Shown: positions 19,290-42,250, counted from the stretch's first letter. The stretch is 64,000 nucleotides of DNA from Candidatus Limnocylindria bacterium (GCA_038233215.1 JBBSML010000012.1:1751-65750); one strand, 5' to 3'. Numbers and translations are program-made. The notes: a model not told the origin generated them from the letters alone.

Positions 19290-19338
19290 CCAGCACGGAC
19301 ACTCAAACTTTCACGCATCATGATGCTACAATGCGTGC

Positions 19339-19569
19339 ATGCGCACGACAGTGACCCTAGACGAGGATGTCGCGGCTGCGGTGAAGCGACTCCGGCGAGA
19401 GGACGGGCTTGGCGTCAGCGAGGCGCTGAACCAGATCGCTCGGGCTGGGCTTGCCCACAAGGAAGCGCGAACGCCGTTCAGGCAGCGCACTGTCAAGATG
19501 GGCCTCCTGGTGGACGTTTCCAATGTCGCGGAAGCCATCGACCTGGCCGAAGGTGCCAGCCATCGCTGA
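19339..19569 (+). CDS. vapB: ribbon-helix-helix antitoxin (VapB-like)
   Basis: MRTTVTLDEDVAAAVKRL...; 76 aa; its stop overlaps the vapC ATG (ATGA). Confidence 0.7.
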   Translation: MRTTVTLDEDVAAAVKRLRREDGLGVSEALNQIARAGLAHKEARTPFRQRTVKMGLLVDVSNVAEAIDLAEGASHR

Positions 19570-19997
19570 TGCTGATCGATGTCAATCTGCTGCTCTATGC
19601 GGCGTACGCAGAGACGCCAGAGCACGAGTTGACTCGGGCATGGCTTCAGGAGCAGTTAAACGGACAGAGACGCGTCGGCCTGCCCTGGGAGTCCCTGGTC
19701 GGCTTCGTTCGACTCGCCACGAATCCACGCGTGTCGCCAAGGGCACTCCGACCAGCTGAGGCGTGGGCATTCGTCGAGGACTGGTTGGCGGCGCCGGTCG
19801 TGTGGGTCCCCACCCCGACGGATGAGCACGCGCAGGTGCTCGGGGGCCTCATCGCGAAGCACAGGATTACCGGCAAGCTCGTGCCCGATGCGCACCTGGT
19901 GGCGCTGGCGATGGAGCATGGCCTCGTCGTGTACTCGGCCGACTCTGACTTCGCGCGATTCCCGGAGATCCGCTGGGTCAATCCGCTCGCTGCGTAG
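19569..19997 (+). CDS. vapC: PIN-domain ribonuclease toxin
   Basis: MLIDVNLLLYA...; PIN acidic residues (D5...E...D...D). Coupled to vapB. Confidence 0.75.
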   Translation: MLIDVNLLLYAAYAETPEHELTRAWLQEQLNGQRRVGLPWESLVGFVRLATNPRVSPRALRPAEAWAFVEDWLAAPVVWVPTPTDEHAQVLGGLIAKHRITGKLVPDAHLVALAMEHGLVVYSADSDFARFPEIRWVNPLAA

Positions 19998-20080: not shown

Positions 20081-22591
20081 GTGAAGCTTTGGCAGGCCGC
20101 CGTCAAGCGGCTGATTGACGTCGTCCTCGGCGCGTTCGGGCTCGTCGTCCTGATCCCGGTCATGGCACTCGTGGTCGTGGCGGTTGCGGTCGATTCAACG
20201 GGTCCGGTCGTCTACGGCGCGCGGCGCGTTGGCCGGCACAGGCGCGAGTTCACGATGTGGAAATTCCGTTCCATGGCCCGTGGCGCAGACAGGGTCGGTC
20301 CGGCGGTGACCGGTGCCTACGACTTCCGCGTGACGCGCGTCGGCGCCTTTTTGCGGCGAACAAAGTTGGATGAGCTTCCGCAGCTGGTGAACGTGCTGGT
20401 GGGCCAGATGTCGCTGGTGGGCCCGCGTCCTGAAGCGCCGGTCTATGTCGAGCGCTGGACGACCGAGGAACGCGAGATCCTTGCCTTCCGACCGGGCATC
20501 ACCGGACCGACGCAGATCGCCTATATCGACGAAGAGGAGCGCCTCGCCGGCGATCCGAACGCGGTGTACGAGTCCGAGCTGATGCATGTCAAGCTCGCGG
20601 TGGACCTCGACTACGTGCGCCGCTTCAGCCTGCGTGGTGACCTCGGGATCATGTGGAAGACGCTCGTCGGCATCCTGTCGGCCGGCGAACGCCGCACGAA
20701 CCGGCCGCGTCGCCGCTACACCCTGGACGAGCGACTGCGCAGTGCCCGCCTGGGGCCCATCCTGCTCGACGCCTTCCTGGCGGCCATGGCAGCGGCCCTG
20801 GCGGTGGGCCTGCGCATCGATCGCAACAACATCTTCGCCGCGGTTGCCACGTACTGGGTCCTCATCCCCCTGGCGGCCATTGTCCGGCCCGCGGGGTTCC
20901 TGATCGCCGGCGCGTACATGCGGGTCTGGCGGTATCCGACCGTCTCCGATGCAGCGCTGATCGTTGGCTCCTTGGCCGCCGGCTCGCTGATCATGACCAT
21001 CCTCATCTTCGTCGTCATGCAACCGTGGGCATTCGCCGGTTCGGTTGGCTTCCCGCGCAGCGCGCTCATCATCGAGTTCCTGGTCTCGTTCATCGTGCTC
21101 GGCGGAATCCGTTTCGCCTCTCGCATTCGCCAGGAAGGCATTGAGGAGGGGATGCCGCCGGCGAGCGCCGGGCCGCCCCGGCCGGTCTTGATCTATGGTG
21201 CCGGTGAGGCGGGAGCGCTGTTGGTTCGCGAGATGCGGCGCAACCGGTCGCTCCGACTTGAGCCGGTCGCCTTCCTTGACGACGATCCGGCGAAGCGCGG
21301 ACAACGTATCTACGGGGTCGAGGTCGTAGGCGGCGCGAAAGATCTGCCGCTCGTGGCAGCCGAGCGCGAGGTGGCCGAGGTGATCGTCGCCATGCCCCGC
21401 ATCGGCGGCGACCTGCTTCGCCAGATCGTTGCCCTCGCGGAGGCCGCGGGCGTTGCCGTGCGCACCCTCCCCGCCGTCGACGAGCTGCTCGACGAAACCG
21501 TGTCTGTGAACCGAGTGCGGCCGGTCCGCGTCGAGGACCTGCTCAGACGGGAACCAATCGCCATCCCTGAAGGACCGATGCGTTCCCTCGTCGAGGGACG
21601 AACCGTCCTGGTCACCGGCGCGGGCGGCAGCATCGGCTCCGAACTTTGCCGCCAGATCGCGTCGCTCGGCGCTCGCCGAATCGTGCTGTTCGAGCGAGCC
21701 GAGACCCCGCTCTTCTACGTCGACGAGGAGACCCGCCGGCGGTTCCCAGGCGTTGAAGTTGTTGCTGTCGTCGGCGACGTGACCGACGAGGGATCCGTGT
21801 CACGCTGCTTTGAGCGTGAGCAGCCGCAGGTCGTCTTCCATGCCGCCGCCCAGAAGCACGTGCCCCTCTCGGAGGCCAACGTCGCCGCGACGGTCTGGAC
21901 CAACGTTCGAGGGACACGCCTAGTCGCGCAAGCGGCCGTTGATATCGGCGTCGAGGCATTCATCTTCATCAGCACCGACAAGGCGGTCGATCCGTCGTCG
22001 ATCATGGGCGCCACAAAGCGCATCGGCGAAGAGCTGGTGCGGACCGCAGGCGCGTCGGCCGTCGGGCGGTTCGTGGTCGTTCGCTTCGGCAACGTGATGG
22101 GGTCACAGGGATCGGTCCTCGAACTCTTCCGGCAGCAGATCGCCGATGGTGGCCCGGTGACGATCACGCACCCGGACATGACGCGGTACTTCATGACGAT
22201 CCCCGAAGCGGTTCGCCTGATCCTGCACGCTGGCGCCGTTGGGCGTCCCGGCGACGTCCACGTCCTGAACATGGGGCAGCCGATCCGGATCGTCGACCTG
22301 GCGAGCGACCTCATCCGTCTTTCGTCACCGGCGGGGTCTCGCGACATTGCCATCGTCTTCACCGGCCTTCGTCCTGGCGAGAAGCTGGAAGAGACATTGT
22401 TCGGGACGGATGAGGAAGCGCTCGAGACGGATTCGCCGTTCCTGCTGGTGGCGCGCCTTGGTGACGAAGGGCCCCTTGGCTCAACGAACCAATTGGCGGC
22501 GCGCCTCGAAGCACTGGCTGGCGAAGGACGGGATGCCGAGTTGCGCGACCAGCTAGGCGGGACCGCCGCAACGAGCGCCGCCCGAGGATGA
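20081..22591 (+). CDS. fusion protein: N-terminal small phosphoglycosyl transferase (Bac_transf/PglC-WbaP catalytic domain) + 4-TM region + C-terminal CapD/PglF/WbpM-type NAD-dependent nucleotide-sugar 4,6-dehydratase
   Basis: N-terminus: [17 protein letters not shown] (hydrophobic helix), [35 protein letters not shown]-terminus: [44 protein letters not shown]. Confidence 0.8.
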
Positions 22592-24750
22592 TCCGCATCG
22601 TTCCCCGCGTGGCACTCCAACTGTGGATCGTCGGGTTCATCGTCTTCTTCGGCGCCGAAGCCATCCACCTCGAGCCGCCCCTGCGCATCGCGACGCAGGT
22701 CCTGTACGGCTTCCCACTGGCGGCGTGGGCGGTATTCCGCCTGCGTGGGCCATACGACAGGCTCGACATGGCCGTTCTCGGGCTTCTGGTCATCTATGCG
22801 ATCCTGTGTCTCTTCAGCCGCGACCGCACCGAGAGCCTTGGCACGCTGGCCCTGGCAACTGCTTACGCGACGTGGTTCCTGCTCCTCCGTCGCGCAGCCG
22901 ATCTGCGCCCGCAGATTGTGCTCGCGATTGGAACCGGGCTCGCTCTCACCCTGGCCTTCAATGCCTACCTGCAGATCCAGGAAAAGGCGACATGGTTCGC
23001 CACCGTCGGCGCGGCGCCGTTCGAGGGAGTGCTGACCTTTCCATGGGAGTCGGTCAACGCGCTCCCGATGCTCGTGTTGATCGCGATTCCGTTCCTGGCC
23101 TGGGTCATACCTTCGCAGATCAAATCGGTTCTGATGTTCGTCGTGGGATTCAGCGCAGTCGTGGTCGTACCTCTCAGCATGGGGCGCGCCGGATGGCTCG
23201 GCCTCGCGGTCGCCGCGCTGCTGGCACTCCTCCTGCCCTCGACCTTGCAGACCTTCGCGAAGACTCGGTGGCAGACCAAAGCACTCGGCGCAGGAGTGGC
23301 GACGGCCGCGGCAGTCGGTGCTGCGGTGCTTGTCGGACCACGGGCGGTAACCGCCATCGCGGAAAGCGGACGCCTGCTTCTCTGGGAACAGGGTTTGGCG
23401 ATGATCATTGGCTCGCCCCTGATCGGATCCGGACCGGGAACGTACTCGTGGGTGCGGCTGGAAGCAGCGCCGGCTGCCGCCGACCTCCTGGCCGTTCGAC
23501 TCGTCCACAACGTTCCGCTCCAGACGCTCGTCGACGGCGGCCTCGTGCTCGGAACCAGCTTGGTCGGCCTGATGGTCGTATGGGGGCTTGCGCTGCATCG
23601 CCGTTGGCCGGCGTGGAGGGTCGCGGACCGAGTCACGTTGGCCTGTGTTACAGGCTTCGTCGCAGCTCTGATCCTCGATGACTTCAGTTACCTACCGGCG
23701 ATCACGGCCAGCTTCCTGGCCGCGGCGGCGTTTCTGGTCCCCGCCTCAGACACGCGAGCTCTGACGCCCGCGCGTGGCCTGGCAGCACCAGCGCTGCTCA
23801 CGCTGGCAGCACTGATTGCTCTGCCGTATGTCGTCGCCGTCGACGTGGCGCGATCAGCGGCACAGGCAGGTCGAGGAGCCATGGTCGACGGAAGCTATGG
23901 CGCGGCGCGAGCGCACTTTGAAGCAGCGACCCAGGCACACCCCGAAAGCGGCGGCTATTGGCTCGGTCTCGGGATGGCCGCGAGCTATGACGGCGACAGG
24001 ACTGGAGCGATCGACGCGTATCGGCGCGCCGTGGCCGTCGCCCCCGGAGATCCGCGGGGGTACGCGGCGCTCGCAGAGCTGGATAGTGGAGCTGACGCCA
24101 GCGTTCTTCTGGAGCAGGCCGCCGACCGCACCTTGGGTGACCCTCAGTACGCGGTTCGGCTGGGGCTCGAGCTGATGGCCGCCGATCGCCCCCACGAGGC
24201 TACGCACGCGTGGAGCCGCGCTGCCGCGCTTCGACCAGACCTCGTGACCACGCTGCCGTACTGGAATCCTGTGACCATGGGAGCGGTCGCTACCGAGGCC
24301 ATGATCACGATCCACAACGAACCCCGTCCCGCTCCGAGAGAGAACATGGAGAATGCTTGGGACCTCGGACTTGCTCTGGATACACTGCCGGCCGACGCTG
24401 ATCCCGCATGGCGGGCGGTGGATGCCGCCCGGCACGGAGACAACGACACCGCACGTGAACTGGCGGAGGGGTCAGTCACTGCCGCACCCTATGTCGCCCG
24501 CGGCTATCAGGCACTTGCGGCGGTCGCTGCGTTCAGTTGTGACCCGACGACGGTCGAGAACGCCCTCCGGCTGGAGGCCCTGAGTCTCGGCGCATACGAG
24601 CCATTACCGCCTGAACCCCACGTGCGGCGCGAGTTCGTGTACCGCGAAGCCAGCCTCGGGCCGACCCAGCCGCCTGCCGTGGAGCCACTCACTGAGCCAG
24701 AAATGTGGCCGTGGTCGCTGGTTCCACGACCCACGGCCTGCGACGGGTGA
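22588..24750 (+). CDS. O-antigen ligase/oligosaccharyltransferase-like (Wzy_C domain) polytopic membrane protein with C-terminal TPR domain
   Basis: About 12 TM helices. Wzy_C signature GSGPGTYSWVRLEAAPAAADLLAVRLVHNVPLQTLVDGGLVLG. The C-terminal about 300 aa are soluble with TPR-like repeats (AYRRAVAVAPGDPRGYAALAEL...). ATGA overlap with the upstream gene. Confidence 0.65.
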   Translation: MIRIVPRVALQLWIVGFIVFFGAEAIHLEPPLRIATQVLYGFPLAAWAVFRLRGPYDRLDMAVLGLLVIYAILCLFSRDRTESLGTLALATAYATWFLLLRRAADLRPQIVLAIGTGLALTLAFNAYLQIQEKATWFATVGAAPFEGVLTFPWESVNALPMLVLIAIPFLAWVIPSQIKSVLMFVVGFSAVVVVPLSMGRAGWLGLAVAALLALLLPSTLQTFAKTRWQTKALGAGVATAAAVGAAVLVGPRAVTAIAESGRLLLWEQGLAMIIGSPLIGSGPGTYSWVRLEAAPAAADLLAVRLVHNVPLQTLVDGGLVLGTSLVGLMVVWGLALHRRWPAWRVADRVTLACVTGFVAALILDDFSYLPAITASFLAAAAFLVPASDTRALTPARGLAAPALLTLAALIALPYVVAVDVARSAAQAGRGAMVDGSYGAARAHFEAATQAHPESGGYWLGLGMAASYDGDRTGAIDAYRRAVAVAPGDPRGYAALAELDSGADASVLLEQAADRTLGDPQYAVRLGLELMAADRPHEATHAWSRAAALRPDLVTTLPYWNPVTMGAVATEAMITIHNEPRPAPRENMENAWDLGLALDTLPADADPAWRAVDAARHGDNDTARELAEGSVTAAPYVARGYQALAAVAAFSCDPTTVENALRLEALSLGAYEPLPPEPHVRREFVYREASLGPTQPPAVEPLTEPEMWPWSLVPRPTACDG

Positions 24751-26270
24751 GGTCGGCATTGCGCAGGAGGATCCCGGCGAGCTGGGTGGCCATCGCCGCA
24801 CTCTTTGCGCTCGTGGCGTTGCCGCGGTCGGCGATTCCGCTCATCGACGGCGATGTGTATTGGCACATTCGGGCCGGCCTCGAGGTGCTCGACACGGGGC
24901 AAGTCCCGGCGGAAGACAGCTGGAGCCTGGTCGGCGACGGCATGCGGTGGCTGAGCCAGGACTGGCTGAGCAACGTGCTCCTCGGCTTGGGATGGCGCCT
25001 CGGAGAGATCGGGCCATCAGCGCTCTCGCTTGCGTGGTCCTCTCTGGTGGTCGCAGCGCTGGCACTGCTCTGGTGGGCCTTCGGCCTGCGACGCCCAGAG
25101 ACCGGATGGCTGGGGCGCATCGGCTGGCTGACCGTCGGGCTTATCGTCGCTGGCCCCGTCCTTGGCGTCCGCGTGCAGGTCGTCGATCTCACGCTGGCGA
25201 CTGCGGTGGTTCTCTCCTGTTGGGGATACCTGGCACGGCCGTCCATCGGTTGGCTCGTGGCACTTCCGACCATCTCGCTCGCGTGGGCCAATCTGCACGC
25301 AGGCTGGCCGCTCATCTTCATCGTCGGTGGCGCCATCGTCATCGGCGAGGCAGCCGACCGGGTGCTGAAACGCCGACCACCGCACAACATGCTGACATGG
25401 CGGCAGATCGCCCTGCTCGGTGGTGCGCTCGTCGTCTCGATCATGCCGATCGCAGTCAATCCGAGTGGTCTTGAGCTGTATGCCTACCCTCTCGAAACTT
25501 CTTCAATCGCAGCCCATCGCGACTTCATATCGGAATGGCAGTCTCCGGATCCGGGAACCATCGTCGGACAGTTGTTCATCGTCTTCGTCGTGGTGATCGT
25601 CCTGCCGTCGCTCTGGATCGGTCGCCGGACGATGCGTGCCGCTGACGCGCTCGTCATCGCGGGCATGACCGTGATGATCGCCCTCGGTGCGCGGTTTCTG
25701 CTGCTCGCGCCGATCATCGCCGCGACGGCCGGACTCACGCTCGAACCGGCGATCAGCGGGACGGCGCTCGGCCGTCGATTTTCGAGGCCACTGGCACGCC
25801 TCGGTACGGCGCGGAGTGGGGCATTCCTCAACGTGGTGAACGCCGCCCTCATCGGCATCATGGTGCTGGCCGGCCTGGGCGTCGCGTGGGCGCGGGCCAG
25901 CCCTACCGCACAGCGCGAGCTCGTCGCCGACCACATGCCGGTCGGCGCGGTTGACTGGATCATCGCCAATGACCCCGGAGCCCGCCCCTTCAACCAGTAT
26001 TCATGGGGCGGATACCTGGGTCTGCGACGGCCCGACCATCCCATCTACATCGATGGCCGATCCGACATTTACGGCGACCGCCCGATACGCGAGTACGCGA
26101 ACGCGGTCCAGCTCGAGACCGATCCACAGGAACTCTTCGATCGCTACGCGATCGACTACATCCTCTTCCCGCCGAATCAGCCGCTCTCGCAGTGGCTTGA
26201 AGACTCGCCCATCTGGCAGCGTGAATACGTGGACGCCATCGCAGCGGTGTGGATCCGCTTGAATGAATAG
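24705..26270 (+). CDS. uncharacterised polytopic membrane protein, GT-C glycosyltransferase-like (paralog of 27111..28547)
   Basis: N-terminal loop motif PLIDGDVYWH...GQVPAEDSWS. About 11 TM helices. C-terminal soluble domain with YIDGRSDIYGDRPIREY. Shares both motifs with the minus-strand paralog. Confidence 0.5.
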   Translation: MAVVAGSTTHGLRRVRSALRRRIPASWVAIAALFALVALPRSAIPLIDGDVYWHIRAGLEVLDTGQVPAEDSWSLVGDGMRWLSQDWLSNVLLGLGWRLGEIGPSALSLAWSSLVVAALALLWWAFGLRRPETGWLGRIGWLTVGLIVAGPVLGVRVQVVDLTLATAVVLSCWGYLARPSIGWLVALPTISLAWANLHAGWPLIFIVGGAIVIGEAADRVLKRRPPHNMLTWRQIALLGGALVVSIMPIAVNPSGLELYAYPLETSSIAAHRDFISEWQSPDPGTIVGQLFIVFVVVIVLPSLWIGRRTMRAADALVIAGMTVMIALGARFLLLAPIIAATAGLTLEPAISGTALGRRFSRPLARLGTARSGAFLNVVNAALIGIMVLAGLGVAWARASPTAQRELVADHMPVGAVDWIIANDPGARPFNQYSWGGYLGLRRPDHPIYIDGRSDIYGDRPIREYANAVQLETDPQELFDRYAIDYILFPPNQPLSQWLEDSPIWQREYVDAIAAVWIRLNE

Positions 26271-27144
26271 GCCGCGCGTTGCAGAAATGATGAGCTCACC
26301 ACAGCTGCGGCGGCTGCTCAGGGATGGAACTCTTATCGCGGCCATCGTCTTCATCGGCTTCGTATGGTGGCTGGTCACGTTCAACGACTATCAGCACGAT
26401 GCCCGGGCTTACTGGGCGGCTGGCCTGGATAGCCCCTACGCCGATGCACTCGTTGGCGGCTCGGATGCGTACCTCTATTCGCCCGTCTTCGCGCAGCTCG
26501 CCTTTCCGCTGAGCCTGCTGCCATTCGAGGTGTTCCGAGGCATCTGGGCCGTGCTGAATCTCGGCGCCCTGGTCTGGCTGACTGGACCCCGACTCGGTGC
26601 CCTCATGTTGATCATCCCCGGCTCGCCGGTAATCGACGAGGTGGCCACGGGCAATGTCCATCTCCTCATCGCGGCCGCCATCTACGCGAGCCTGTGGAGG
26701 CCGGCCGCATGGGCATTCCCGCTGCTCACGAAGATCACCCCGGGGATCGGCGCCGCCTACCTCCTGGGCGCGCGACGCTGGCGCGCCTTCGCGGAGGCAG
26801 TGGGGGTTTCCGTTGCGTTGAGCGTCATCTCGTTCGCGATCGTCCCCGACCTGTGGTTCGAATGGTTGCGCGTCCTCACCTCGAGCACGAGCGTTCCTGT
26901 TCCTGGCGAGATTGCGATCATTCCGGGCCCGCTTTCGGTCCGCGTGGCAGCTGCTGGCGCGATCGCCCTCGTTGGTGGCATACGCGGCTGGCGGTGGGTG
27001 ATGCCGGTGGCGGCCATGATTGCCCTGCCGGTCCCGTGGTCGTCCGGCCTGAGCCTCCTGGTCGCCGTGGTAGCGCTGTGGCGGTCCGGGCACCTTGTCG
27101 AGCCCAAGGCTCAGGCGGCTGGCGAGGGCGCCCGCGTGACCTGA
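26263..27144 (+). CDS. GT87/DUF2029-family membrane glycosyltransferase (paralog 5)
   Basis: Core ATGNVHLLIAAAIYASLWRPAAWAFPLLTKITPGIGAAYLL, as in paralogs 1-4. Confidence 0.65.
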   Translation: MNRPRVAEMMSSPQLRRLLRDGTLIAAIVFIGFVWWLVTFNDYQHDARAYWAAGLDSPYADALVGGSDAYLYSPVFAQLAFPLSLLPFEVFRGIWAVLNLGALVWLTGPRLGALMLIIPGSPVIDEVATGNVHLLIAAAIYASLWRPAAWAFPLLTKITPGIGAAYLLGARRWRAFAEAVGVSVALSVISFAIVPDLWFEWLRVLTSSTSVPVPGEIAIIPGPLSVRVAAAGAIALVGGIRGWRWVMPVAAMIALPVPWSSGLSLLVAVVALWRSGHLVEPKAQAAGEGARVT

Positions 27145-28547
27145 TCACAGGGGAGAAGGAGGACCGCTCGCTCGTCGCGAAACGCCTCGCACCAGCCTGC
27201 CCGCTCATCCATCGAAGCCAACGGCGCGCTGGGAGGAAGGAGGATCGCCTCAACCCCACGGTCGGCGGCGACCGTTTGCCAGCCGGACTCCGCGCCGCGG
27301 ATGGCCAGGTACTCCTCGAATATCTCGCGCGGGTACATGTCGCTCCGGCCATCGATGAACACTGATCCACCAGAGCCGTACAGGCGGTGGATCGCCCACC
27401 CGCCCCAGTCGTAGTCGACCAATGCCTGAACATCGGGTTCGACGGCGACCAACTGATCCATGGCTGCGCTGGGAAAGACCTCATCTTCGGCCTGGCTGAC
27501 CGCAGGTGGCAGAACGATGACGATCCCGACGACCACCACTGCCGCCAGCCCCAATTCCAGGATGCGGCGTTGGCGCGCGCTGGCGACCGAGCGCGCCCGC
27601 GGCGGCCGAAGGCGAGAGTCGAGCCCAATCGCGAGCATGGGCATCGTCATCACCACCGCAAGCGGGGCGTTACGAACTGCCACGAGGGCACCCAGGGCAC
27701 CGACAACTGCCACTGCCGTGAGCCACCCCGGCGCACCGCGTCGACCAAGGGCAATGACGCCGACGATCAGAAGTGCGACGCCCCATTGCCGCGGGTCAGT
27801 GAAATCGGCCGGCTGCCACTCAGCGATGAAGCTGGTGCCCCAATCGTCCTGGCGCAGGTACCGCAGCGGATAAACGATGCCGTCAAGGCCTGCGGGCGTG
27901 ATCGCAGAGGCAAGTGCGCCGCCAAGGAGCATGCCGACCGCCGTCCATCGCCGTGGCGCAAGCGCGGTTCGACCGAGAAGCGAGAACAGGACGTACACGC
28001 CCACCACTCCAACGCCCACGATCCAGAGACCGTGGAGGTTCGCCCACAGCGCCAGCAACGGAACCACGAGCCATGGCCGGATCCGGTGGTTGACGCGCAG
28101 GCCGAACAGCAGGGCGAGCAAGACAGCAAGAAGCAGCCACGAGAGCACCTGTGGACGTACCGTCGCGAACGAGGCGAGCACGTAGGTGCCGACCACCAGG
28201 AATGGCGTCAGCGCGCGGACTGCGATCCTGTGTCGGTGGAGCATGAACGCGGGGACGAGGAGCGCGCCAGCGGTGGCCAACCCAAAGATGGCAGCTGTGA
28301 CCGGGTAGCCGACGGTCCCCACAAGAGCGGCGATCACCACCTCGCCGAGCCATTCATGAGCGACCCAGGGCCCGTCATAGGCGAAAGAAAACGGATCGTT
28401 CGTCGGCACATCACCGCTGCCGAGAATCAGGCGTCCCGTCTCGAGGTGCCACCAGTAATCTGCGTCGATCGGACCGCGTGCCTCAACCAGCACAATGAAG
28501 AACGCGGCGACGACGGCCGCCAGGATCGTCAGCGGCGAGGGGAGCAT
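27111..28547 (-). CDS. uncharacterised polytopic membrane protein, GT-C glycosyltransferase-like (paralog of 24705..26270)
   Basis: GPIDADYWWHLETGRLILGSGDVPTNDPFSF...; C-terminus FIDGRSDMYPREIFEEY. Confidence 0.5.
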   Translation of the reverse strand: MLPSPLTILAAVVAAFFIVLVEARGPIDADYWWHLETGRLILGSGDVPTNDPFSFAYDGPWVAHEWLGEVVIAALVGTVGYPVTAAIFGLATAGALLVPAFMLHRHRIAVRALTPFLVVGTYVLASFATVRPQVLSWLLLAVLLALLFGLRVNHRIRPWLVVPLLALWANLHGLWIVGVGVVGVYVLFSLLGRTALAPRRWTAVGMLLGGALASAITPAGLDGIVYPLRYLRQDDWGTSFIAEWQPADFTDPRQWGVALLIVGVIALGRRGAPGWLTAVAVVGALGALVAVRNAPLAVVMTMPMLAIGLDSRLRPPRARSVASARQRRILELGLAAVVVVGIVIVLPPAVSQAEDEVFPSAAMDQLVAVEPDVQALVDYDWGGWAIHRLYGSGGSVFIDGRSDMYPREIFEEYLAIRGAESGWQTVAADRGVEAILLPPSAPLASMDERAGWCEAFRDERAVLLLPCDQVTRAPSPAA

Positions 28548-28597: not shown

Positions 28598-30217
28598 ATG
28601 CCCGCGCGCTCGGTGATCTTTCGCGATCTGGTCTCGCTCACCGCGGTGGCGCTCGTCGTGCGCGCGGTGTCTGCGTGGCTTGTGCCGGCGCCGCCGCACG
28701 TCGACGCCGCCTACTACACGATGATCGGCGAGCAGTTGGCGATCGGCAATGGGTTCAACGCCCCGGCCCTGTGGAGCTTTCTCGAGGTCGGGGGCAGGCT
28801 CCCGGCCAACCCGGGTCTGCCGGTCCCAAGCAATGGCCACTGGATGCCACTCACCTCAATCGTGAGCGGCGCCTTCATGACGATCCTGAGTCCTGACTGG
28901 CGGGCCGGCCAGGTGCCCATGGTGCTCCTCTCGACGCTCCTCGTGCCACTGACCTACCTCGCGGCGTGGCAGGTGTCGAGATCTCGGCGCGGCGCCGTTC
29001 TGTCCGCGATCCTCGCCATCACCGCCGGATCGCTTCTCCTCATGTATCCCCTGATCGAGTCCTTCGCCACATTCGGAGTGCTGGGCGCCACAACGCTCCT
29101 TGCCAGCGTGCGAGCAATGGAAACCGCTCGCCCTGGGCCATGGCTCGTGCTGGCTGGTGCTGCCGCGGGAGGCGCGAGCCTGACCCGTATCGACGGCGTG
29201 CTTCTCACGCTGGCTCCTGCAACCGCATGGCTCCTTCTCCGTCCGTTCGGAACCGGGCACCTCGGATCTCCGATTCGGGCGCTGGGTTGGGGATGGCTCA
29301 GCGCAATGGCGTTTCTCGTGGTTGTCATACCTTGGTTGATCCGCGACGTCGCCGTCTTCGGCACAGCGTTTCCCTCCCCGGGAGGCCGCCTGCTCTGGAT
29401 CCGCGATTACAACGAGCACCTGTCGATCAGTCTCAACCTGAGCCTGGAGCGCTACCTGGCGTGGGGACTGCCGGCCATCCTGCTCTCGAAGCTCGCCGCG
29501 CTCGTGGCCGTGCTGGGACAGACCCTCGCGCTGATGGGTGGAGTCTTCGGCCTCTATTTCCTCGCTGGCCTGTGGATGCAGCGTCGTAATCGACGCCTGG
29601 CACCAGTAACGGTGTACCTCATCGCGATGTTCGCGACAATGATCCTGCTCGCCACCGAGCATGCTCCGAAGGGCGCATTTCTTCACACCGCACCCGCGTG
29701 GCTGCCATTTGCCCTGCCGATGGCGGTCTCCGCGGTCGTACCCGCCTCCACCGCCATGGGGCGCGTCTGGCCGTTCCTCCGTCGACCGGCGACGCATCGC
29801 TTCCTCGAGGTGGTCGCCGTTGTCGGAGCGGTGGTGCTGGCCCTGATTGGCGCACTCATCCTTGTTGGCCAGTGGCAGGTCCGTTTCGAGCGCCAGGAAG
29901 CAGCCGCCACCTTTCTGCGAAACGAGGCGGCCCCCGGTGATGTGATCCTGGCCGACGATCCATCAAGCCTGTACCTGCGCACTGGTCTCCATGGGGTCGC
30001 CCCGCCCTTCGACCCGTACCCAGTGATCGAACGAGTGATCGAGTCCTATGGCATCGATTGGGTCGTGGTCACGCTCGGTCCCAAGGAAACAATTGATCCC
30101 CTTGGCTTGTGGGAAGGAGGATCTGCCGCCGACGCGCTCGGCAATGAGGCCACGTTTCTTCCAGACGCACCAGCGTTCGAGGCCGACGGTGTGCGGGTCT
30201 TCAAAGTCGATCCGTAG
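28598..30217 (+). CDS. ArnT/PMT-type (GT39/GT83-like) polyprenyl-phosphate-sugar dependent GT-C glycosyltransferase
   Basis: First loop PPHVDAAYYTMIGEQLAIGNGF; 10+ TM helices; C-terminal soluble domain. Confidence 0.6.
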   Translation: MPARSVIFRDLVSLTAVALVVRAVSAWLVPAPPHVDAAYYTMIGEQLAIGNGFNAPALWSFLEVGGRLPANPGLPVPSNGHWMPLTSIVSGAFMTILSPDWRAGQVPMVLLSTLLVPLTYLAAWQVSRSRRGAVLSAILAITAGSLLLMYPLIESFATFGVLGATTLLASVRAMETARPGPWLVLAGAAAGGASLTRIDGVLLTLAPATAWLLLRPFGTGHLGSPIRALGWGWLSAMAFLVVVIPWLIRDVAVFGTAFPSPGGRLLWIRDYNEHLSISLNLSLERYLAWGLPAILLSKLAALVAVLGQTLALMGGVFGLYFLAGLWMQRRNRRLAPVTVYLIAMFATMILLATEHAPKGAFLHTAPAWLPFALPMAVSAVVPASTAMGRVWPFLRRPATHRFLEVVAVVGAVVLALIGALILVGQWQVRFERQEAAATFLRNEAAPGDVILADDPSSLYLRTGLHGVAPPFDPYPVIERVIESYGIDWVVVTLGPKETIDPLGLWEGGSAADALGNEATFLPDAPAFEADGVRVFKVDP

Positions 30218-30317
30218 TACTTCCGAGGCTCAAAGTACTGTTGCCCGGATGCACTCGGGGCCGACAGCATGGACGCGACGTCCGGTACTACGCCGGACAC
30301 GGTACTCCAGGGACCTT

Positions 30318-31337
30318 ATGGCGAACAATCCGGCGCGCGACAGCGCGAATCAGGAATTCGACCGCATCGGGGCAGAGGCCACTGAGAGCCTGCTCGGCGA
30401 TTCGCGACGCCTGCATGCGCTGGCCGAGCAGTTTCGCAGTCAGTACCGCAGCGACCTCGAGCAATGGATGCAGCTCCGCGCGCGGCTCGACCGCCGGGGG
30501 AATGACCTCCGTCCGGTCGGAACCGATGCGCTGCGCGCCGAATACGAGGCACGAAGCAGAGACCTGGCGGCGCTCCAGGCCCGGCTGAAGCGCCTGGAAG
30601 TCGTCGCGAGCCAACTGGATATCCTGCTGGGATACCTCGAATCCCCTGAGGCGGCAGGCACGGAGCCCGGACCGATGGCCGACGCCTCGCCCGCCACCAT
30701 GAGCCTGCGCATCGTCCAGGCCCAGGAAGGTGAGCGCCAGCGCATGGCGGAGGACATCCACGACGGTCCGGCGCAGGTTCTCACCAACGCGATATTCCAG
30801 GTCGAGTATCTGGATCGCATCCTCGGCGATGCAGACCGCGCGGCCCAGGCCGAGGTTGCGTTTCTGCGCGACATGCTGCGTAACGGCCTTGACGAAGTTC
30901 GCACCTTCATCACCGACCTACGGCCGCCGGTTGTCGATGTCGGCATGGCGACCGCGCTCGCCGAGCGCGCACAACAGCTCCATGCGCGGCACGGGATCGC
31001 CACGGAGATTTCGCTCAAGGGTATCGACGAGCGCCTGACGCCGGCGCAGCGCTCGTCTGTCCTGCGCATCGTGCAGGAGGCATTACAAAACGTGCGCAAA
31101 CACGCGGCAGCCAGCACCGTCGCCATCGGTCTCGAGGGAGATTCCCTGGTCATCGAGGACAACGGTCGCGGCTTCGACCTGATGCGCCTCGCATCAGGGA
31201 CGAGTGGCAACTTCGGATTGCAGTTCATGCGGGAGCGCGCCGAGCTACTCGGTGGTCAGCTCCAGATCGATTCGCGACAGGGTGAAGGTACCCGTATCCT
31301 GCTCCGGTTGCCGGTGCAGGCGCGCGACGCACACTGA
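30318..31337 (+). CDS. cytoplasmic NarL-family sensor histidine kinase (HisKA_3 + HATPase_c), no TM segments
   Basis: H-box QEGERQRMAEDIHDGPAQVL; HATPase QEALQNVRKHA...DNGRGF...GLQFMRERAELLGG. Start at ATG 30318. Confidence 0.8.
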   Translation: MANNPARDSANQEFDRIGAEATESLLGDSRRLHALAEQFRSQYRSDLEQWMQLRARLDRRGNDLRPVGTDALRAEYEARSRDLAALQARLKRLEVVASQLDILLGYLESPEAAGTEPGPMADASPATMSLRIVQAQEGERQRMAEDIHDGPAQVLTNAIFQVEYLDRILGDADRAAQAEVAFLRDMLRNGLDEVRTFITDLRPPVVDVGMATALAERAQQLHARHGIATEISLKGIDERLTPAQRSSVLRIVQEALQNVRKHAAASTVAIGLEGDSLVIEDNGRGFDLMRLASGTSGNFGLQFMRERAELLGGQLQIDSRQGEGTRILLRLPVQARDAH

Positions 31338-31350
31338 GGAGGAGAGCCTA

Positions 31351-32085
31351 ATGACAGTCGAAACCAAGACCGACGAGCGTCGCAGGGGCGGCGATCGCCG
31401 CGCCGGAAGCATCCGGGTCGTCATCGTGGACGGCCACACGCTGTTCCGTCGTGGCGTCCGAAACATCCTGGAGCTCGAAGACGACATCGAGGTCGTCGGC
31501 GAGGCGGGCTCAGGAAGAGACGCACTGGCCATGGTCCAGGACGTCACGCCGGACGTCGTACTCATGGACCTGGGCCTACCGGCGCCGAACGGGATCGAGA
31601 CAACCCAGCGCCTGAAGCGCGAGCTTCCGCATACCGGCGTCATCGTGCTCGCATCGAATGACGACGAGGACCAGCTGTTTGACGCCATCAAGGCCGGGGC
31701 CGCGGCGTACGTCCTGAAGGACATTGACCCGACCGACCTGATCGCCATCATCCGGCGCGTGCAGGCCGGCGAGTACCTGATCAACGACAAGGTCTTCGCC
31801 AAACCAGCAGTCGCGTCGCGCGTCCTCAAGGAGTTCAGGGAGCTCGCCGTCTATGGATCCGAGGCGGCGCCGATCTTCGCGCCACTCTCACCGCGCGAGG
31901 TCGAGATCCTGGACAACATCGCGCAGGGCATGACGAACAAGCAGGTGGCCTACGCGCTGGGCATCAGCGAGCAGACCGTGAAGAACCACATGAGCTCGAT
32001 TTTGCGCAAGCTCTCGGTGAACGACCGCACCCAGGCCGTGGTCTACGCCATGCGCCAAGGCTGGATCAAGATCCCCGAGGACTGA
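31351..32085 (+). CDS. NarL/LuxR-family response regulator
   Basis: REC VVIVDGHTLFRRG...VVLMDLGLP; LuxR HTH LSPREVEILDNIAQGMTNKQVAYALGISEQTVKNHMSSILRKL. RBS ggaggagag upstream. Confidence 0.85.
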   Translation: MTVETKTDERRRGGDRRAGSIRVVIVDGHTLFRRGVRNILELEDDIEVVGEAGSGRDALAMVQDVTPDVVLMDLGLPAPNGIETTQRLKRELPHTGVIVLASNDDEDQLFDAIKAGAAAYVLKDIDPTDLIAIIRRVQAGEYLINDKVFAKPAVASRVLKEFRELAVYGSEAAPIFAPLSPREVEILDNIAQGMTNKQVAYALGISEQTVKNHMSSILRKLSVNDRTQAVVYAMRQGWIKIPED

Positions 32086-32421: not shown

Positions 32422-32604
32422 ATGATCAAGAACTTCATCAGCAATCTTCTGGCTCGCTTCCAGAGCGAGGACGAGGACGGGCAGACGCTCGTCGAGTACG
32501 GCCTGCTTCTCGCCCTCATCGCGATCGTCGTGATCGCCGCCCTGATCTTCCTGGGCCCGATCATCAGCCAGCTGTTCCAGAACGTCGGCACCTCGTTGAA
32601 GTAA
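32422..32604 (+). CDS. flp: Flp/Fap-family type IVb (Tad) pilin
   Basis: 60 aa with the Flp motif GQTLVEYGLLLALIAIVVIAAL. Strong RBS aaaggagga upstream. Confidence 0.8.
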   Translation: MIKNFISNLLARFQSEDEDGQTLVEYGLLLALIAIVVIAALIFLGPIISQLFQNVGTSLK

Positions 32605-32632
32605 GCCGTCCTCCAGACGGAAACGACTCACA

Positions 32633-32668
32633 GACCCCCGCAGCCTCGGCTGCGGGGGTCTTTCGTGT
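32633..32668 (+). terminator. rho-independent terminator/attenuator downstream of flp
   Basis: gacccccgcagc-ctcg-gctgcgggggtc then tttcgtgt. Confidence 0.6.
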
Positions 32669-32830
32669 CATTGTGCGTTGACGGCTCTGCAAGTACCACG
32701 AGGGTCATAGCCCACAAGTCCAGTCGTTGAGACTTGCCGCCCGTGCGTAGACTGTTGACCGCAGGCACAACCCGTGTACTGCCAGGTACTCATTCCGTAA
32801 CCAATCCACCCGAGCCCAAAGGGGACTTTT

Positions 32831-33727
32831 GTGAAGCGATCGAATCGCCTCGTCATCCTGGTCGGCGTCCTGCTCGCCGTCCTCGCCTTCGTTGCCATCG
32901 TGATCCTGCTCAATCAGCGAGAAGAGGCCGTGGCACCAGAGGAGATCACCGAGACGGTCCTGGTCGCGACGCAGGACATCGCCATCGGCGACCCGGTCAC
33001 CCCCGACGTCGTTGAGGAGCAGGAGATTAACCCCGAAGCCGTTCAGGGCGCTGCGCTCGGCAGTGCATCGGCAGTCTCCGGACAGCCTGCCCTCTTTGCG
33101 ATTCCCGCCGGGTCCCAAGTTACGGGCGAGGCGATCGGCCTCGGCACTGCTGCCGATACCAACCTGGCCGCGCGGCTAGAACCGGGCGAAAAGGCGATCG
33201 GGTTCCAGGTCGACAGCGAGACGGGACTGAACCTCCTCATCAAGGAGGGAGACTCGATCGACTTGATCCTCAGCCAAGACGTGCCTGCCGTGCAGGAGAC
33301 GGCCGATTCGGCTGCGAACCCAGATACCGAAGCGCCGCCCCGCTTTGAACCAGTCGCGGGCTTGGAGAATCTTCGATCGGTGAAGGCCATTCTTCAGGAC
33401 AAGCGCGTTCTGTATGTCAGTGACACTAAGGCTTTCGCGCCCCAACCCGTGGACGCGGATGGCGACGGCGTGGCAGATCCCGAACAACCTCCACCCGCAC
33501 CCGAGGACCAGACTTCTACGGCGATCATCATCATTGCGGGCACTGAGCAGGACGCCGAAGTGGTCAAATTTGCCCAGGGCCAAGAGCGATCGATCACGAC
33601 GGTGATGCGACACGCAGACGACGATGCCATCGACGAAACTCTGGGAATCACCCTCCGACAGCTGGTGGATGAATTCGGTGTACTAATCCCCGATATCATC
33701 CAGCTCGATTTTGAGGCCGCGCCGTAA
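32831..33727 (+). CDS. cpaB: Flp pilus assembly protein CpaB/RcpC
   Basis: N-terminal TM anchor; SAF-like region VLVATQDIAIGDPVTPDVV; acidic C-terminus. Confidence 0.7.
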   Translation: MKRSNRLVILVGVLLAVLAFVAIVILLNQREEAVAPEEITETVLVATQDIAIGDPVTPDVVEEQEINPEAVQGAALGSASAVSGQPALFAIPAGSQVTGEAIGLGTAADTNLAARLEPGEKAIGFQVDSETGLNLLIKEGDSIDLILSQDVPAVQETADSAANPDTEAPPRFEPVAGLENLRSVKAILQDKRVLYVSDTKAFAPQPVDADGDGVADPEQPPPAPEDQTSTAIIIIAGTEQDAEVVKFAQGQERSITTVMRHADDDAIDETLGITLRQLVDEFGVLIPDIIQLDFEAAP

Positions 33728-33762
33728 GCTGGCGCTCGCGCCAGCTCTGACGGTTCACCATC

Positions 33763-34995
33763 ATGATCAAAGTCCTCATCGTCGACGACATTCCCGAGAC
33801 ACGCGACCACCTCTCGCGTCTCCTTGGCCTGGAGCGTGAGATCGACGTTGCCGGCACCGCCGGCTCCGGCGAGGAGGCGATCCGCGTATCGATGGAGCTA
33901 CGGCCGGATGTCATCGTCATGGACATCAACATGCCGGGCATGGACGGCATCGCCGCCGCCGAGATCATCTCGCAGCGACTTCCGCACAGCCCGATCATCA
34001 TGATGAGTGTCCATGGCGAGGCGGAGCAGCTCAAGCGATCCATGCTCGCGGGTGCCCGTGAGTTCCTCGTCAAGCCGTTCAGCGGCGACGAGTTCTCGAC
34101 CTCGATCAAGCGCGTGCATGAGCGTGAGCTGACTCGCCGAGAGCAGATGCAGGAGACGTCCGGCGGGGCCGTAGCGACACCCGCCGGCGAATCCGGCGAC
34201 CCCGAGGACCACCAGGTGATCGGCGTGTTCTCACCGAAGGGCGGCGCTGGACGAACGACATTGGCCGTGAACCTGGCACTCGCCCTCAAACGGGAGACGA
34301 ACCAGCGCGTGGCCCTCATCGACGCGAACCTTCAATTCGGCGACGTCGGCGTTCTCCTGAATCTGAACCCGAAGAACCGCTCCGTCGCGGAGGCCGTCGA
34401 AGGCGGCGAGCCTGACGGTGACATCATCGAATCCGTCATGGTCGAGCACTCGACCGGCATCCGCGTGCTCCTCGCCCCACCGTCGCCAGAGGGCGCCGAC
34501 CTCGTCACGCCCGCATACCTCAAGAAGATCATCGGGTTCCTGCGCGAGACGCACGACTGGGTCGTGGTGGACCTTCCGTCGGGCCTCAACGATCACACCC
34601 TGGGGGTCCTTGACGGGGCCGATCAGATCCTGGTCGTCGCCGCGCTCGAGATCACCACCATCAAGAACGTTCGGCTCTTCCTGGAGATCGCGGATCAGCT
34701 CGACTACGAGCGCTCGAAGATTCGCCTCGTCATCAACCGATCGGACGCCTCGCAGGGCATCCGCATCGGCGATGTGGAGGCCTCCATTCGCCGCTCCATC
34801 GACGGCACGATCGTCTCCGACGGCCGCCTCGCCGTGCTCGCGGTGAATCGCGGAGTGCCGTTCGTCGTATCTCATCCAGAGTCGCCGCTCTCGCGCGACG
34901 TCTTCAAGCTCGCCCGAACGCTCGCCGGCGCGGGGACAGCCACCACCGGAAAGACCGATAAGGCCGCAAAGCGCGGACTCTTCGCACGCCGCTGA
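33763..34995 (+). CDS. tadZ: TadZ/CpaE pilus-localisation ATPase (ParA/MinD fold) with N-terminal canonical receiver domain
   Basis: REC KVLIVDDIPETRD...VIVMDINMPGMDG...KPF; ATPase VIGVFSPKGGAGRTTLAVNLALAL. Confidence 0.75.
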   Translation: MIKVLIVDDIPETRDHLSRLLGLEREIDVAGTAGSGEEAIRVSMELRPDVIVMDINMPGMDGIAAAEIISQRLPHSPIIMMSVHGEAEQLKRSMLAGAREFLVKPFSGDEFSTSIKRVHERELTRREQMQETSGGAVATPAGESGDPEDHQVIGVFSPKGGAGRTTLAVNLALALKRETNQRVALIDANLQFGDVGVLLNLNPKNRSVAEAVEGGEPDGDIIESVMVEHSTGIRVLLAPPSPEGADLVTPAYLKKIIGFLRETHDWVVVDLPSGLNDHTLGVLDGADQILVVAALEITTIKNVRLFLEIADQLDYERSKIRLVINRSDASQGIRIGDVEASIRRSIDGTIVSDGRLAVLAVNRGVPFVVSHPESPLSRDVFKLARTLAGAGTATTGKTDKAAKRGLFARR

Positions 34996-35017
34996 GACCA
35001 TTGGAAGGACGCAGCAC

Positions 35018-37461: not shown

Positions 37462-37465
37462 TGCT

Positions 37466-38383: not shown

Positions 38384-38385
38384 CC

Positions 38386-39099: not shown

Positions 39100-39102
39100 G
39101 CC

Positions 39103-40575: not shown

Positions 40576-40680
40576 TACGACCGTACCAATGCGATCGGGA
40601 CGGTTTACGGGCAGGCTGCAAGGTGACGTGCAAGGTCGCGCTCATAGACTCCGCTCATAAGTCGCTAACGAGCCCCCAAG

Positions 40681-41769: not shown

Positions 41770-41770
41770 C

Positions 41771-42250
41771 ATGCGCCTGCTTCAACGTCGCCCCAGACGA
41801 GGCCAGTCCCTCGTGGAGTTCGCGCTCGTTCTCCCGATCTTCTTCCTGCTCCTGTTCGGAGTACTGGATCTCGGTCGCGGCGTTCTCGCCTTCAACTCTG
41901 TGTCCAACGCGGCACGGGAGGGCGTTCGAACGGCGATTGTCGATCAAACGGTTTCTGCCATCAAGGCACGAGCCGCCAGGACGTCCACCGGGGCTGCGCT
42001 CTCCGCCGGGGACATCCGCATCGCGTTCCGCAGGAGTGACGACCCCACCAACATCAGCAACGTGTGCAACCCGGTTCGCGAAGGATGCGTCGCCGTCGTG
42101 ACCGTGCAAACGCTCTTCCAGGCGGCAACGCCGTTGATCGGCAACATCGTCGGCCCGGTCTGCATTCAGTCCACGACCATGATGGCCGTCGAGGCCGTAC
42201 CAACCCCCACCCCCGCTCCACCTCCCGCGTGGACGGCGGCCTGTCCGTGA
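41771..42250 (+). CDS. TadE-like minor pilin
   Basis: MRLLQRRPRRGQSLVEFALVLPIFFLLLFGVLDLGR. Confidence 0.65.
   Translation: MRLLQRRPRRGQSLVEFALVLPIFFLLLFGVLDLGRGVLAFNSVSNAAREGVRTAIVDQTVSAIKARAARTSTGAALSAGDIRIAFRRSDDPTNISNVCNPVREGCVAVVTVQTLFQAATPLIGNIVGPVCIQSTTMMAVEAVPTPTPAPPPAWTAACP

Follow-up and report, generated by a model that had tools for sequence, protein, structure and literature searches.

Two open reading frames (ORFs), here called A and B, lie on opposite strands of a 64,000-nucleotide stretch of DNA from Candidatus Limnocylindria bacterium (GCA_038233215.1, JBBSML010000012.1:1751-65750; the whole stretch, with a G+C content of about 65%, is referred to as the window). We consider it probable that A and B are anciently diverged paralogues belonging to a large, unclassified family with the GT-C_A fold, and that they act as extracytoplasmic glycosyltransferases (GTs) using a polyprenyl-phosphate-linked donor. 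Below we document their paralogy, the conservation of their motifs, their fold and pattern of topology, the size of the family and its gene context, and weigh what these suggest about function.

Two diverged paralogues of a large family

An earlier, sequence-only reading of this DNA had proposed the two ORFs as paralogues, and both were confirmed at their coordinates (Table 1). In a BLASTP comparison the proteins share 27% identity over 499 columns, covering nearly the entire length of both (E = 2e-22), and a hidden Markov model (HMM) of the family matches just A and B among the 189 ORFs of at least 150 amino acids (AA) in the window; the pair is real, far beyond chance. The start codon of A is uncertain by about 20 codons, since most A orthologues start near residue 20.

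Homology searches brought up 317 relatives of A and 642 of B. The nearest, 94% and 97% identical, respectively, come from metagenome-assembled genomes (MAGs) labelled "Candidatus Limnocylindria bacterium" (Chloroflexota), and identities within the two orthologue series range from 49 to 94% (A) and from 43 to 97% (B). An exhaustive profile search of 1.84 billion cluster representatives (clusters at 50% identity) yielded 36,736 proteins at E <= 1e-3, of which 27,118 passed E <= 1e-10 and 11,149 passed E <= 1e-30. Cluster look-ups for 20 representatives gave Chloroflexota (Anaerolineae, Anaerolineaceae) and two MAGs of Pyrinomonadaceae (Acidobacteriota) as sources, with "hypothetical protein" as the sole name.

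The motifs that A and B had been noted to share, one N-terminal and one C-terminal, proved to be kept with few or no exceptions in homologues of as little as 22-30% identity. Conservation was scored in two alignments, one of 45 A-type and B-type orthologue sequences (A1) and one of A, B and 60 remote cluster representatives with 22-30% identity to A (A2). Alignment A1 has 31 invariant columns, among them D48-x-D50-x-x-W53-H54, D71 and D450-G-R452 of the earlier reading; in the numbering of A, the invariant residues include D48, D50, W53, H54, G58, D71, G79, W82, W87, R156, Q158, W194, N196, H198, P253, Y261, P262, E277, W278, R330, Y432, W434, G436, D450, G451, R452, Y456 and W504. Across A2, H54, G58, W82, W194, H198, P253, R330 and P412 are present in all 62 sequences, D50, D71 and N196 in 61, R156 in 60, E277, D450 and R452 in 59, and D48 in 55. 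Because they are conserved across A2, the motifs are signatures of the family and no coincidence between two proteins. The conservation of charged residues gives an enzyme-like pattern and, as each paralogue keeps every invariant residue, both are probably active.

The remark that the proteins belong to no named family likewise held. Neither A nor B has a Pfam match at E <= 1 beyond noise, or an NCBIfam match, and none of the 62 members of A2 matches a GT-C Pfam family at E <= 0.1, STT3, PMT and PMT_2 included; a sub-threshold match of one A2 relative to DUF7139 was judged meaningless. The GT87 model, which recognizes the ORF between A and B and two other paralogues in the window, matches neither protein, nor do the Wzy-type Pfam models (Wzy_C, EpsG, O-ag_pol_Wzy). 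Searches of PDB sequences with single sequences (phmmer) and with profiles (hmmsearch) gave nothing meaningful, the only match being a spurious one to EccE5 (E = 0.27). All homologues that bear a name are listed as "hypothetical protein" save two (P0041, P0179) that carry the automatic JGI label "MFS family permease", and no description of A/B-type proteins was found in literature on the family, on GT-C enzymes in Limnocylindria or Chloroflexi, or on Flp pilin glycosylation.

Predicted fold and topology

AlphaFold2 models computed from the family alignments are of very high confidence and have a mean predicted local distance difference test score (pLDDT) of 94.3 and a predicted template modelling score (pTM) of 0.91 for A, and of 93.7 and 0.92 for B. 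Each contains 11 transmembrane (TM) helices, in agreement with the earlier estimate of about 11, together with two helices in the first extracytoplasmic loop (EL1) and two short ones in EL4, the long outer loop that follows TM7. An alpha/beta domain of about 120 AA forms the C-terminus of each model. In the model of A, helices 49-64 and 87-97 lie between TM1 and TM2, forming a long EL1 with juxtamembrane helices and a conserved acid.

The suspicion that these are GT-C proteins was strengthened by Foldseek comparison of both models with the PDB, in which 15 matches for A and 14 for B had E <= 1e-3, every one of them a GT-C_A enzyme (STT3, PglB, AglB, DPY19 and ArnT, and for B also AftA and AftD). 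Matches to GT-C_A enzymes had a probability of 1.0 and query-normalized TM-scores (TMq) of 0.45-0.63. For A, yeast and human STT3 lead the list (top match 8age_A, E = 5.5e-7, TMq 0.61), with AftB, ALG9 and EmbA-EmbB (chain 7bvc_A) at weaker E-values; for B the top match is also STT3 (8age_A, E = 1.6e-6; 8agc_A, TMq 0.63), and further GT-C_A matches are to DPY19, AftA, AglB, AftD, PglB, ArnT and AftB. ArnT 5f15 gave E-values of 4.3e-5 (A) and 2.1e-3 (B). Both A and B are confidently predicted to have the GT-C_A fold, a subclass defined by Alexander & Locher (summarized in PMC10920833 and PMC11127046).

The two "MFS family permease" labels would make A and B transporters or permeases. Assignment to such a non-glycosyltransferase fold was examined in the same comparison, and the outcome favours GT-C: transporters, G-protein-coupled receptors and SEDS (shape, elongation, division and sporulation) proteins stayed below a probability of 0.3 with TM-scores of 0.1-0.2, the best SEDS match being FtsW 8p1u_A with the model of A (E = 0.46, probability 0.28, TMq 0.21), and transporters and G-protein-coupled receptors remained below 0.15 with TM-scores of about 0.1 (transporters at a probability of 0.1 or less), against a probability of 1.0 for GT-C enzymes. 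Neither protein matches an MFS Pfam family, and one of the 62 A2 members has a weak match to MFS_1 (E = 0.0024). We rejected the transporter reading on this fold assignment and give it next to no credence.

When the boundaries of the model of A are applied to A2, the predicted cytoplasmic segments (the N-terminus and inner loops IL1-5) hold on average about 10.5 lysines and arginines per roughly 53 residues, and the short outer loops EL2, EL3 and EL5 about 1.1 per 12 residues, that one being the invariant R156. The N-terminus of A and B is thus predicted to be cytoplasmic and the C-terminal domain extracytoplasmic. Taken with the fold, this distribution of positive charge would put every conserved polar residue on the extracytoplasmic side, which matches solved GT-C enzymes; the acidic D-x-D-aromatic motif that had been recognized just after TM1 is indeed there, and faces outward by the fold and the positive-inside rule. 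The invariant set predicted for the outer face consists of D48, D50, H54 and D71 in EL1, R156 in EL2, N196 and H198 at the exit of TM5, E277 in the helical EL4 loop, R330 at the top of TM10 and the Y-x-W-G-G...D-G-R segment of the C-terminal domain.

Relation to the oligosaccharyltransferases of GT66

The oligosaccharyltransferases (OSTs) STT3, PglB and AglB of family GT66 are the best structural matches to both models (E about 1e-6, TMq up to 0.63), and the likeness extends to a conserved aspartate at the start of EL1, a conserved glutamate on a long helical outer loop, a conserved arginine atop a late TM helix and a C-terminal outer alpha/beta domain. Within that domain, Y-x-W-G-G-Y-x12-[IV]-D-G-R has the layout of WWDYGY-x12-[LIV]-D-[GN]-[GN], with a G-to-D spacing of 14 in both. 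Genuine PglB and human STT3B sequences, recovered from the PDB search output, show that in PglB, STT3B and A a conserved G-Y is followed exactly 14 residues on by [IV/L]-D-[G/N]; B has two extra residues in the stretch between the G-Y motif and D-G-R (sequences in Table 1). In the models of A and B the Y-x-W-G-G segment comes after a beta-strand and begins a helix, and the same strand-motif-helix layout is known from OST structures. The isolated C-terminal domain of Archaeoglobus fulgidus AglB-S2 (3vu0_C) was matched by B with a probability of 0.99, a target-normalized TM-score of 0.50 and a root-mean-square deviation of 3.8 Å, but with E = 0.49.

For profile-profile comparison, 80 metagenome loci of PglB were fetched and a full-length alignment of 40 sequences (37-72% pairwise identity) was prepared. 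Local hhalign over the full length gave P = 0.086, with E277 opposite the glutamate of the TIXE motif and R330 opposite the arginine of G-L-R in PglB. The C-terminal domains aligned at P = 0.018 (probability 2.5%) in an unguided register that pairs GGY with YGY and IDGR with iDGG, the N-terminal part gave P = 0.11 and no sensible register, and against fragments of PglB the A2 family HMM reached a score of about -1 bit, yet in the same IDG register. These registers are mutually consistent and none is statistically significant, so that sequence homology of the family to GT66 is not demonstrable.

In GT66 the WWD of the WWDYG motif binds the sequon, and a second acidic motif (DxD, DxE or DxH) sits in the loop after TM3, as seen in PglB and AglB structures. 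At the WWDYG position A and B read Y-x-W-G-G-Y, in which G and Y alone are kept and WWD is missing; their loop after TM3 has a conserved R156-P-Q158 instead; and they have 11 TM helices, not 13. They are also shorter (about 480-520 AA against 700-870 AA), and no DK or MI motif was identified in either. Neither has a Pfam STT3 or PDB OST sequence match; given the missing WWD, the R-P-Q and the 11 TM helices, we call the family "STT3-like in fold" and no member of GT66.

The same data bear on the idea that A and/or B are STT3-like transferases moving a flipped polyprenyl-diphosphate (lipid-PP)-oligosaccharide en bloc to a protein (S-layer or Flp/Tad pilin), to a glycan or to a growing chain. The ranking of STT3, PglB and AglB for both models, the AglB-S2 match, the C-terminal layout that hhalign recovers unaided and the pairing of E277 and R330 with PglB residues all speak for it, as does an invariant set of two arginines, an aspartate and a histidine, which matches the signature reported for clan GT-C3 (PMC10920833). 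The loss of the sequon-binding WWD, the replacement of the second acidic motif, the number of helices and the lack of significant sequence similarity to GT66 speak against it, and with the genomic evidence given below we regard en-bloc transfer as unlikely. A more specific version, to which we assign a low probability, holds that the family is a minimal, highly diverged STT3/PglB/AglB relative that kept the catalytic membrane core and the central-core C-terminal domain (with Y-x-W-G-G...D-G-R for WWDYG...D-G-G) and lost sequon recognition. It would represent a new class of glycosyltransferase dependent on lipid-PP or lipid-phosphate (lipid-P) donors, and its task in Chloroflexota and some Acidobacteriota would be the modification of envelope proteins (for example Flp/Tad pilins or S-layer proteins) or the ligation of glycans; A and B would form a heteromeric pair.

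Origin of the pair and gene neighbourhood

Gene layout was mapped by tblastn in 79 loci from species-representative genomes. Limnocylindria-type loci carry A, B, a GT39-like gene, a histidine kinase and a response regulator together, and the synteny with this two-component system extends over more than 30 loci. One layout runs Wzy_C-TPR gene, GT87 gene, A (forward), B (reverse), GT39-like gene (forward), kinase and regulator (e.g. L001/L037, which are the same contig, and L003-L007); in the other, B (reverse) precedes A (forward), the GT39-like gene (forward), kinase and regulator (e.g. L009, L010, L011, L017, L020, L022, L027 and L031). Only the window and L034 have a GT87 gene placed between A and B; in L002, a 94%-identical contig, GT87 comes right after A and the contig ends inside it. 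As the GT39-like gene keeps its synteny with A, B and the kinase-regulator pair in most loci of Limnocylindria, three GT-C genes make up the conserved unit, a triad.

The sequence-only reading had taken the mirror-image arrangement around GT87 for an inverted duplication. A recent event of this kind is not supported: at the DNA level A and B share a single inverted repeat, a 25-nt stretch (I2) encoding IDGRSD, the position of GT87 is not conserved, and the 27% identity, the separate orthologue series and the varied layouts indicate that the duplication predates diversification of the class and that the GT87 position is lineage-specific. The opposite orientation of A and B is conserved, and their "mirror around GT87" is incidental.

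Extra copies were seen in a few loci, with a second A-type gene in L005 (14639-16081) and two B-type genes flanking A in L008 (6416-7891 and 10060-11472); family copy number is therefore dynamic. The gene content of six contigs (L003, L011, L044, L046, L049 and L074) resembles that of Limnocylindria or Dormibacterota, and three of them (L003, L011, L044) also show the Limnocylindria synteny; their MAG titles name Steroidobacteraceae, Methylomirabilota or a Micrarchaeaceae archaeon, and mis-binning or mislabelling is likely.

In the window, the phosphoglycosyl-transferase fusion, the Wzy_C-TPR gene, A and GT87 follow one another as an operon with overlaps of 4, 46 and 8 nt, and the GT87 gene, whose earlier assignment Pfam bears out, also overlaps the 3' end of B by 34 nt. 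B converges on this operon and diverges from the 539-AA GT39-like gene. Homologues of the 539-AA protein contain PMT or PMT_2 domains (PF02366 or PF13231), and their names are "glycosyltransferase family 39 protein" (NCBI) or ArnT-like. The fusion, which joins a polyprenyl-phosphate phosphoglycosyl transferase to a PglF/CapD-like sugar-nucleotide 4,6-dehydratase-like domain, would initiate a lipid-linked glycan, and the Wzy_C-TPR protein is a candidate ligase, polymerase or O-oligosaccharyltransferase of the cluster. In L001 the fusion region is called as three separate genes, the tblastn hits being split in three; a true fusion in the window and frameshifts in the L001 assembly are both possible. 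Further upstream lie, on the plus strand, the 734-AA protein gene, two GT87 genes and RmlA-, RmlB-, RmlD- and RmlC-type genes and, on the minus strand, methyltransferases, two GT2 genes and a WzxE-like flippase; genes for a DegT aminotransferase and a PIN-domain protein are also upstream. The 734-AA protein sits at the edge of the glycan cluster beside GT87 paralogues. The flp/tad locus downstream also contains CpaB, a CpaE-like receiver-ParA fusion, CpaF, TadB, TadC, an OmpR-type regulator with its kinase, and four TadE/TadG-like genes.

Table 1. Features of the window: ORFs A and B, their motifs and neighbouring genes
Feature	Position	Strand	Description
ORF A	24705..26270	+	521 AA; membrane protein of predicted GT-C_A fold, unclassified family, A-type orthologue group
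EL1 motif of A, D48-G-D50-V-Y-W53-H54	24846..24866	+	start of first extracytoplasmic loop; predicted catalytic/metal-binding
C-terminal motif of A, D450-G-R-S-D454	26052..26066	+	predicted extracytoplasmic domain; 14 residues past Y432-x-W-G-G436-Y
Sequence around C-terminal motif, A			FNQYSWGGYLGLRRPDHPIYIDGRSD
ORF B	27111..28547	-	478 AA; paralogue of A, B-type orthologue group, all family-invariant residues present
EL1 motif of B, D28-A-D30-Y-W-W33-H34	28446..28466	-	equivalent of A 48-54; invariant columns of alignment A3
C-terminal motif of B, D399-G-R-S-D403	27339..27353	-	sole A/B stretch also seen as DNA inverted repeat
Sequence around C-terminal motif, B			LVDYDWGGWAIHRLYGSGGSVFIDGRSD
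GT87-family GT-C gene	26263..27144	+	293 AA; Pfam GT87 1.9e-15; between A and B
Two further GT87 genes	4176..5117, 5985..7070	+	Pfam GT87
GT39/PMT-like divergent GT-C gene	28598..30217	+	539 AA; no Pfam match of its own; divergently transcribed from B
Wzy_C and TPR membrane protein	22588..24750	+	720 AA; Pfam Wzy_C 2.1e-9, TPR families; directly upstream of A
Bac_transf/CoA_binding_3/Polysacc_synt_2 fusion	20081..22591	+	836 AA; Pfam 2e-55 (Bac_transf), 1e-102 (Polysacc_synt_2)
HisKA_3 histidine kinase and LuxR-type response regulator	30048..32085	+	Pfam; directly downstream of the GT-C triad
734-AA protein	1720..3924	+	no Pfam match; C-terminal NF037959 "fused MFS/spermidine synthase" (spermidine-synthase-like domain) 8.2e-13, above the 40-bit cut-off
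PIN-domain protein	19320..19997	+	within the glycan cluster, between the DegT aminotransferase and the phosphoglycosyl-transferase fusion
Complete flp/tad pilus locus	32422..46050		downstream of the two-component system
Flp pilin	32422..32604		G/QTLVEY processing motif

The tight synteny with the two-component system across Limnocylindria raises the thought that A and B keep the GT-C fold for a non-catalytic role, as scaffold, presenting or regulatory subunits for the GT87 or GT39-like enzyme, or as a sensor for the HisKA_3/LuxR system; a HisKA_3 kinase also follows the distant array L080 (see below), and GT-C paralogue pairs can include less active partners. Yet D50, D71, R156, H198, E277, R330, D450 and R452, at positions of the GT-C_A active site, are kept in both paralogues and in relatives of 22-30% identity, and we regard a non-catalytic role as very improbable.

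Context of distant family members

Family members are repeatedly embedded in gene sets for extracytoplasmic glycosylation. An Anaerolineae locus (L051, 350-16961) has nine consecutive GT-C-type genes on one strand, in the order YfhO-like, PMT_2, two members of the A/B family, DUF2079, PMT_2, GT87, PMT_2 and GT87; the contig, from an Anaerolineae MAG, also carries an unannotated 633-AA gene. In L080, the series PMT_2, family member, GT87 and PMT_2 precedes a gene related to the 539-AA GT39-like one and the HisKA_3 kinase. Dormibacterota-type loci combine tad genes (T2SSF, T2SSE, RcpC), a PEMT/ICMT-like methyltransferase, a family member, an unannotated 537-AA membrane protein and two GT2 genes, after which come a polysaccharide deacetylase and a GT4 gene. 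The best matches of these GT2 proteins are to the polyprenyl-phosphate sugar synthases AglJ, PpgS, ArnC and dolichyl-phosphate hexose transferase, all below curated cut-offs.

Among the 94 nearest neighbours in 27 distant loci, 12 are PEMT/ICMT, nine GT2, eight RcpC, seven GT87, five PMT_2, two YfhO and one DUF2079. The commonest neighbour, the integral membrane PEMT/ICMT methyltransferase (e.g. L057:7195-7899; 12 of the 27 loci), stands directly upstream of the family member and often overlaps it, and might methylate a phosphate or carboxyl group of a lipid-linked molecule or glycan. Family members adjoin tad genes in Dormibacterota-type loci such as L057, for which pilin glycosylation and inherited synteny are both possible explanations.

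Proposed function

Drawing on the structures of PglB, ArnT and PMT, we propose that in A and B the EL1 aspartate D50, aided by D48, would activate the acceptor or bind a metal, and that R156, R330 and H198 would hold the phosphate or phosphates of a polyprenyl-phosphate-linked sugar donor. As with the EL5 glutamate of PglB, E277 would be carried by a mobile outer loop, and the C-terminal domain would help to bind the acceptor. Sugar transfer would be inverting and would go to an acceptor beyond the cytoplasmic membrane. The substrate of A and B, which would act alongside the GT87 paralogues and the GT39-like neighbour, may be the glycan made by the surrounding Wzx-dependent cluster, or else envelope proteins. 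The distinct loop sequences of A and B suggest different specificities or a heteromeric enzyme. Most likely, each adds a residue or linkage of its own, or the two form a heterodimer in the way of Pmt1-Pmt2 and EmbA-EmbB.

A lipid-P-monosaccharide is favoured as the donor because of the GT87, PMT_2 and polyprenyl-phosphate-sugar-synthase-like GT2 neighbours, and because such donors serve four of the five GT families placed in GT-C_A, all five being inverting (PMC10920833, Table 1). Catalysis, the type of donor and the acceptor are what we infer for A and B. Several points weigh against this proposal. The window contains no obvious polyprenyl-phosphate sugar synthase or GtrA-type flippase, and its two GT2 proteins look like ordinary cytoplasmic enzymes. 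The closest structural neighbours, of GT66, use a lipid-PP-oligosaccharide, not a lipid-P-monosaccharide. Searches of Pfam, NCBIfam and PDB profiles and the hhalign comparisons with PglB (P = 0.086 and 0.018) found no sequence link to a characterized GT family, and the equivalences of D50, E277 and R330 with D56, E319 and R375 are drawn from where the residues sit in the loops and from an hhalign register that lacks significance.

Genomic context offers en-bloc transfer some further support, in that the cluster has a phosphoglycosyl transferase, a PglF/PglE-like dehydratase and aminotransferase and a Wzx flippase, and that tad/flp pilus loci are nearby in Limnocylindria and Dormibacterota. Against this, the Wzy_C-TPR protein directly upstream of A could itself be the ligase, polymerase or O-oligosaccharyltransferase; arrays with GT87, PMT_2 and DUF2079 genes, and adjacent GT2 genes resembling those of polyprenyl-phosphate sugar synthases, are typical of lipid-P-monosaccharide chemistry; and tad adjacency in two related classes may be inherited synteny. 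We retain transfer from a polyprenyl-phosphate-linked sugar as the preferred reading, with a lipid-PP-oligosaccharide donor (for en-bloc transfer or for polymerase- or ligase-like action) as a serious rival in view of the structural closeness to GT66, the signature of two arginines, aspartate and histidine, and the Wzx-dependent cluster.

GT-C enzymes build the glycans and glycoproteins of the cell envelope on the outer side of the membrane. With no Pfam or NCBIfam model, no sequence-matched structure and its named homologues called "hypothetical protein", the family represents a blind spot in the annotation of Chloroflexota envelope glycans, and a family model with one biochemical characterization would annotate thousands of proteins. 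Uncharacterized GT-C enzymes in Chloroflexota are in themselves unsurprising to a specialist; what we describe is a distinct, very large and unmodelled family within a well-known superfamily. It merits study for its size, for being wholly missing from Pfam and NCBIfam and for its STT3-like C-terminal core and, if the STT3-like features reflect real homology, it would bear on how oligosaccharyltransferases evolved from simpler GT-C enzymes.

Comparison with other GT-C systems

Besides GT66, ArnT (GT83) and the PMT and PMT_2-like enzymes (GT39) resemble A and B in their GT-C_A fold, similar size and small C-terminal periplasmic domain, in an acidic motif right after TM1 followed by a juxtamembrane helix and a conserved proline/aromatic segment, and in having conserved basic residues available for the donor phosphate; PMT_2-type genes also often adjoin family members. 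The family differs in that none of the 62 A2 members has a Pfam PMT or PMT_2 match, its motif is D-x-D-x-x-W-H rather than DE..., and W-x-N-x-H and E-W-x-x-P-D are specific to it. GT87 enzymes, PimE-type polyprenyl-phosphate-mannose-dependent mannosyltransferases, are polytopic GT-C proteins, one of which is encoded between A and B and whose genes frequently adjoin family members, whereas A and B lack a GT87 HMM match, are larger and have a C-terminal soluble domain.

The Wzy-type polymerases of clan GT-C3 (GT122-GT124) are inverting, lipid-PP-using enzymes with a long loop near the N-terminus and a reported signature of two arginines, an aspartate and a histidine (PMC10920833). Compared by description alone, A and B resemble them in the long catalytic loop near the N-terminus, the set of two arginines, aspartate and histidine on the outer face and the association with Wzx-dependent clusters, and differ in having a C-terminal globular domain and no Pfam Wzy-type match. 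To our knowledge, Wzy proteins do not carry such a domain.

CAZy families of GT-C enzymes are still being founded upon characterization, as with GT119-GT135 and, in 2024, GT136 (PMC10920833, PMC11127046). The GT136 enzyme, ORF12 of Citrobacter youngae O1, is a GT-C_A enzyme that stood outside existing families and founded its own once its activity was shown; it catalyses a post-polymerization transfer from a lipid-P-pentofuranose donor as part of a three-component system (PMC11127046). It differs from A and B in its unrelated sequence and its carbohydrate-binding module, and adjacent three-component partners of its kind were not seen in the window.

The C-mannosyltransferase DPY19 (GT98) and AftA, AftB, AftD and Emb (GT85, GT89, GT53) share the GT-C_A fold with A and B at a Foldseek probability of 1.0, and differ in having no sequence similarity to them, other loop motifs and other C-terminal domains. 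DPY19 and the mycobacterial arabinofuranosyltransferases use lipid-P-monosaccharide donors. In the mycobacterial Aft/Emb system several GT-C paralogues extend an envelope glycan outside the membrane, an organization that resembles the multi-GT-C arrays described here.

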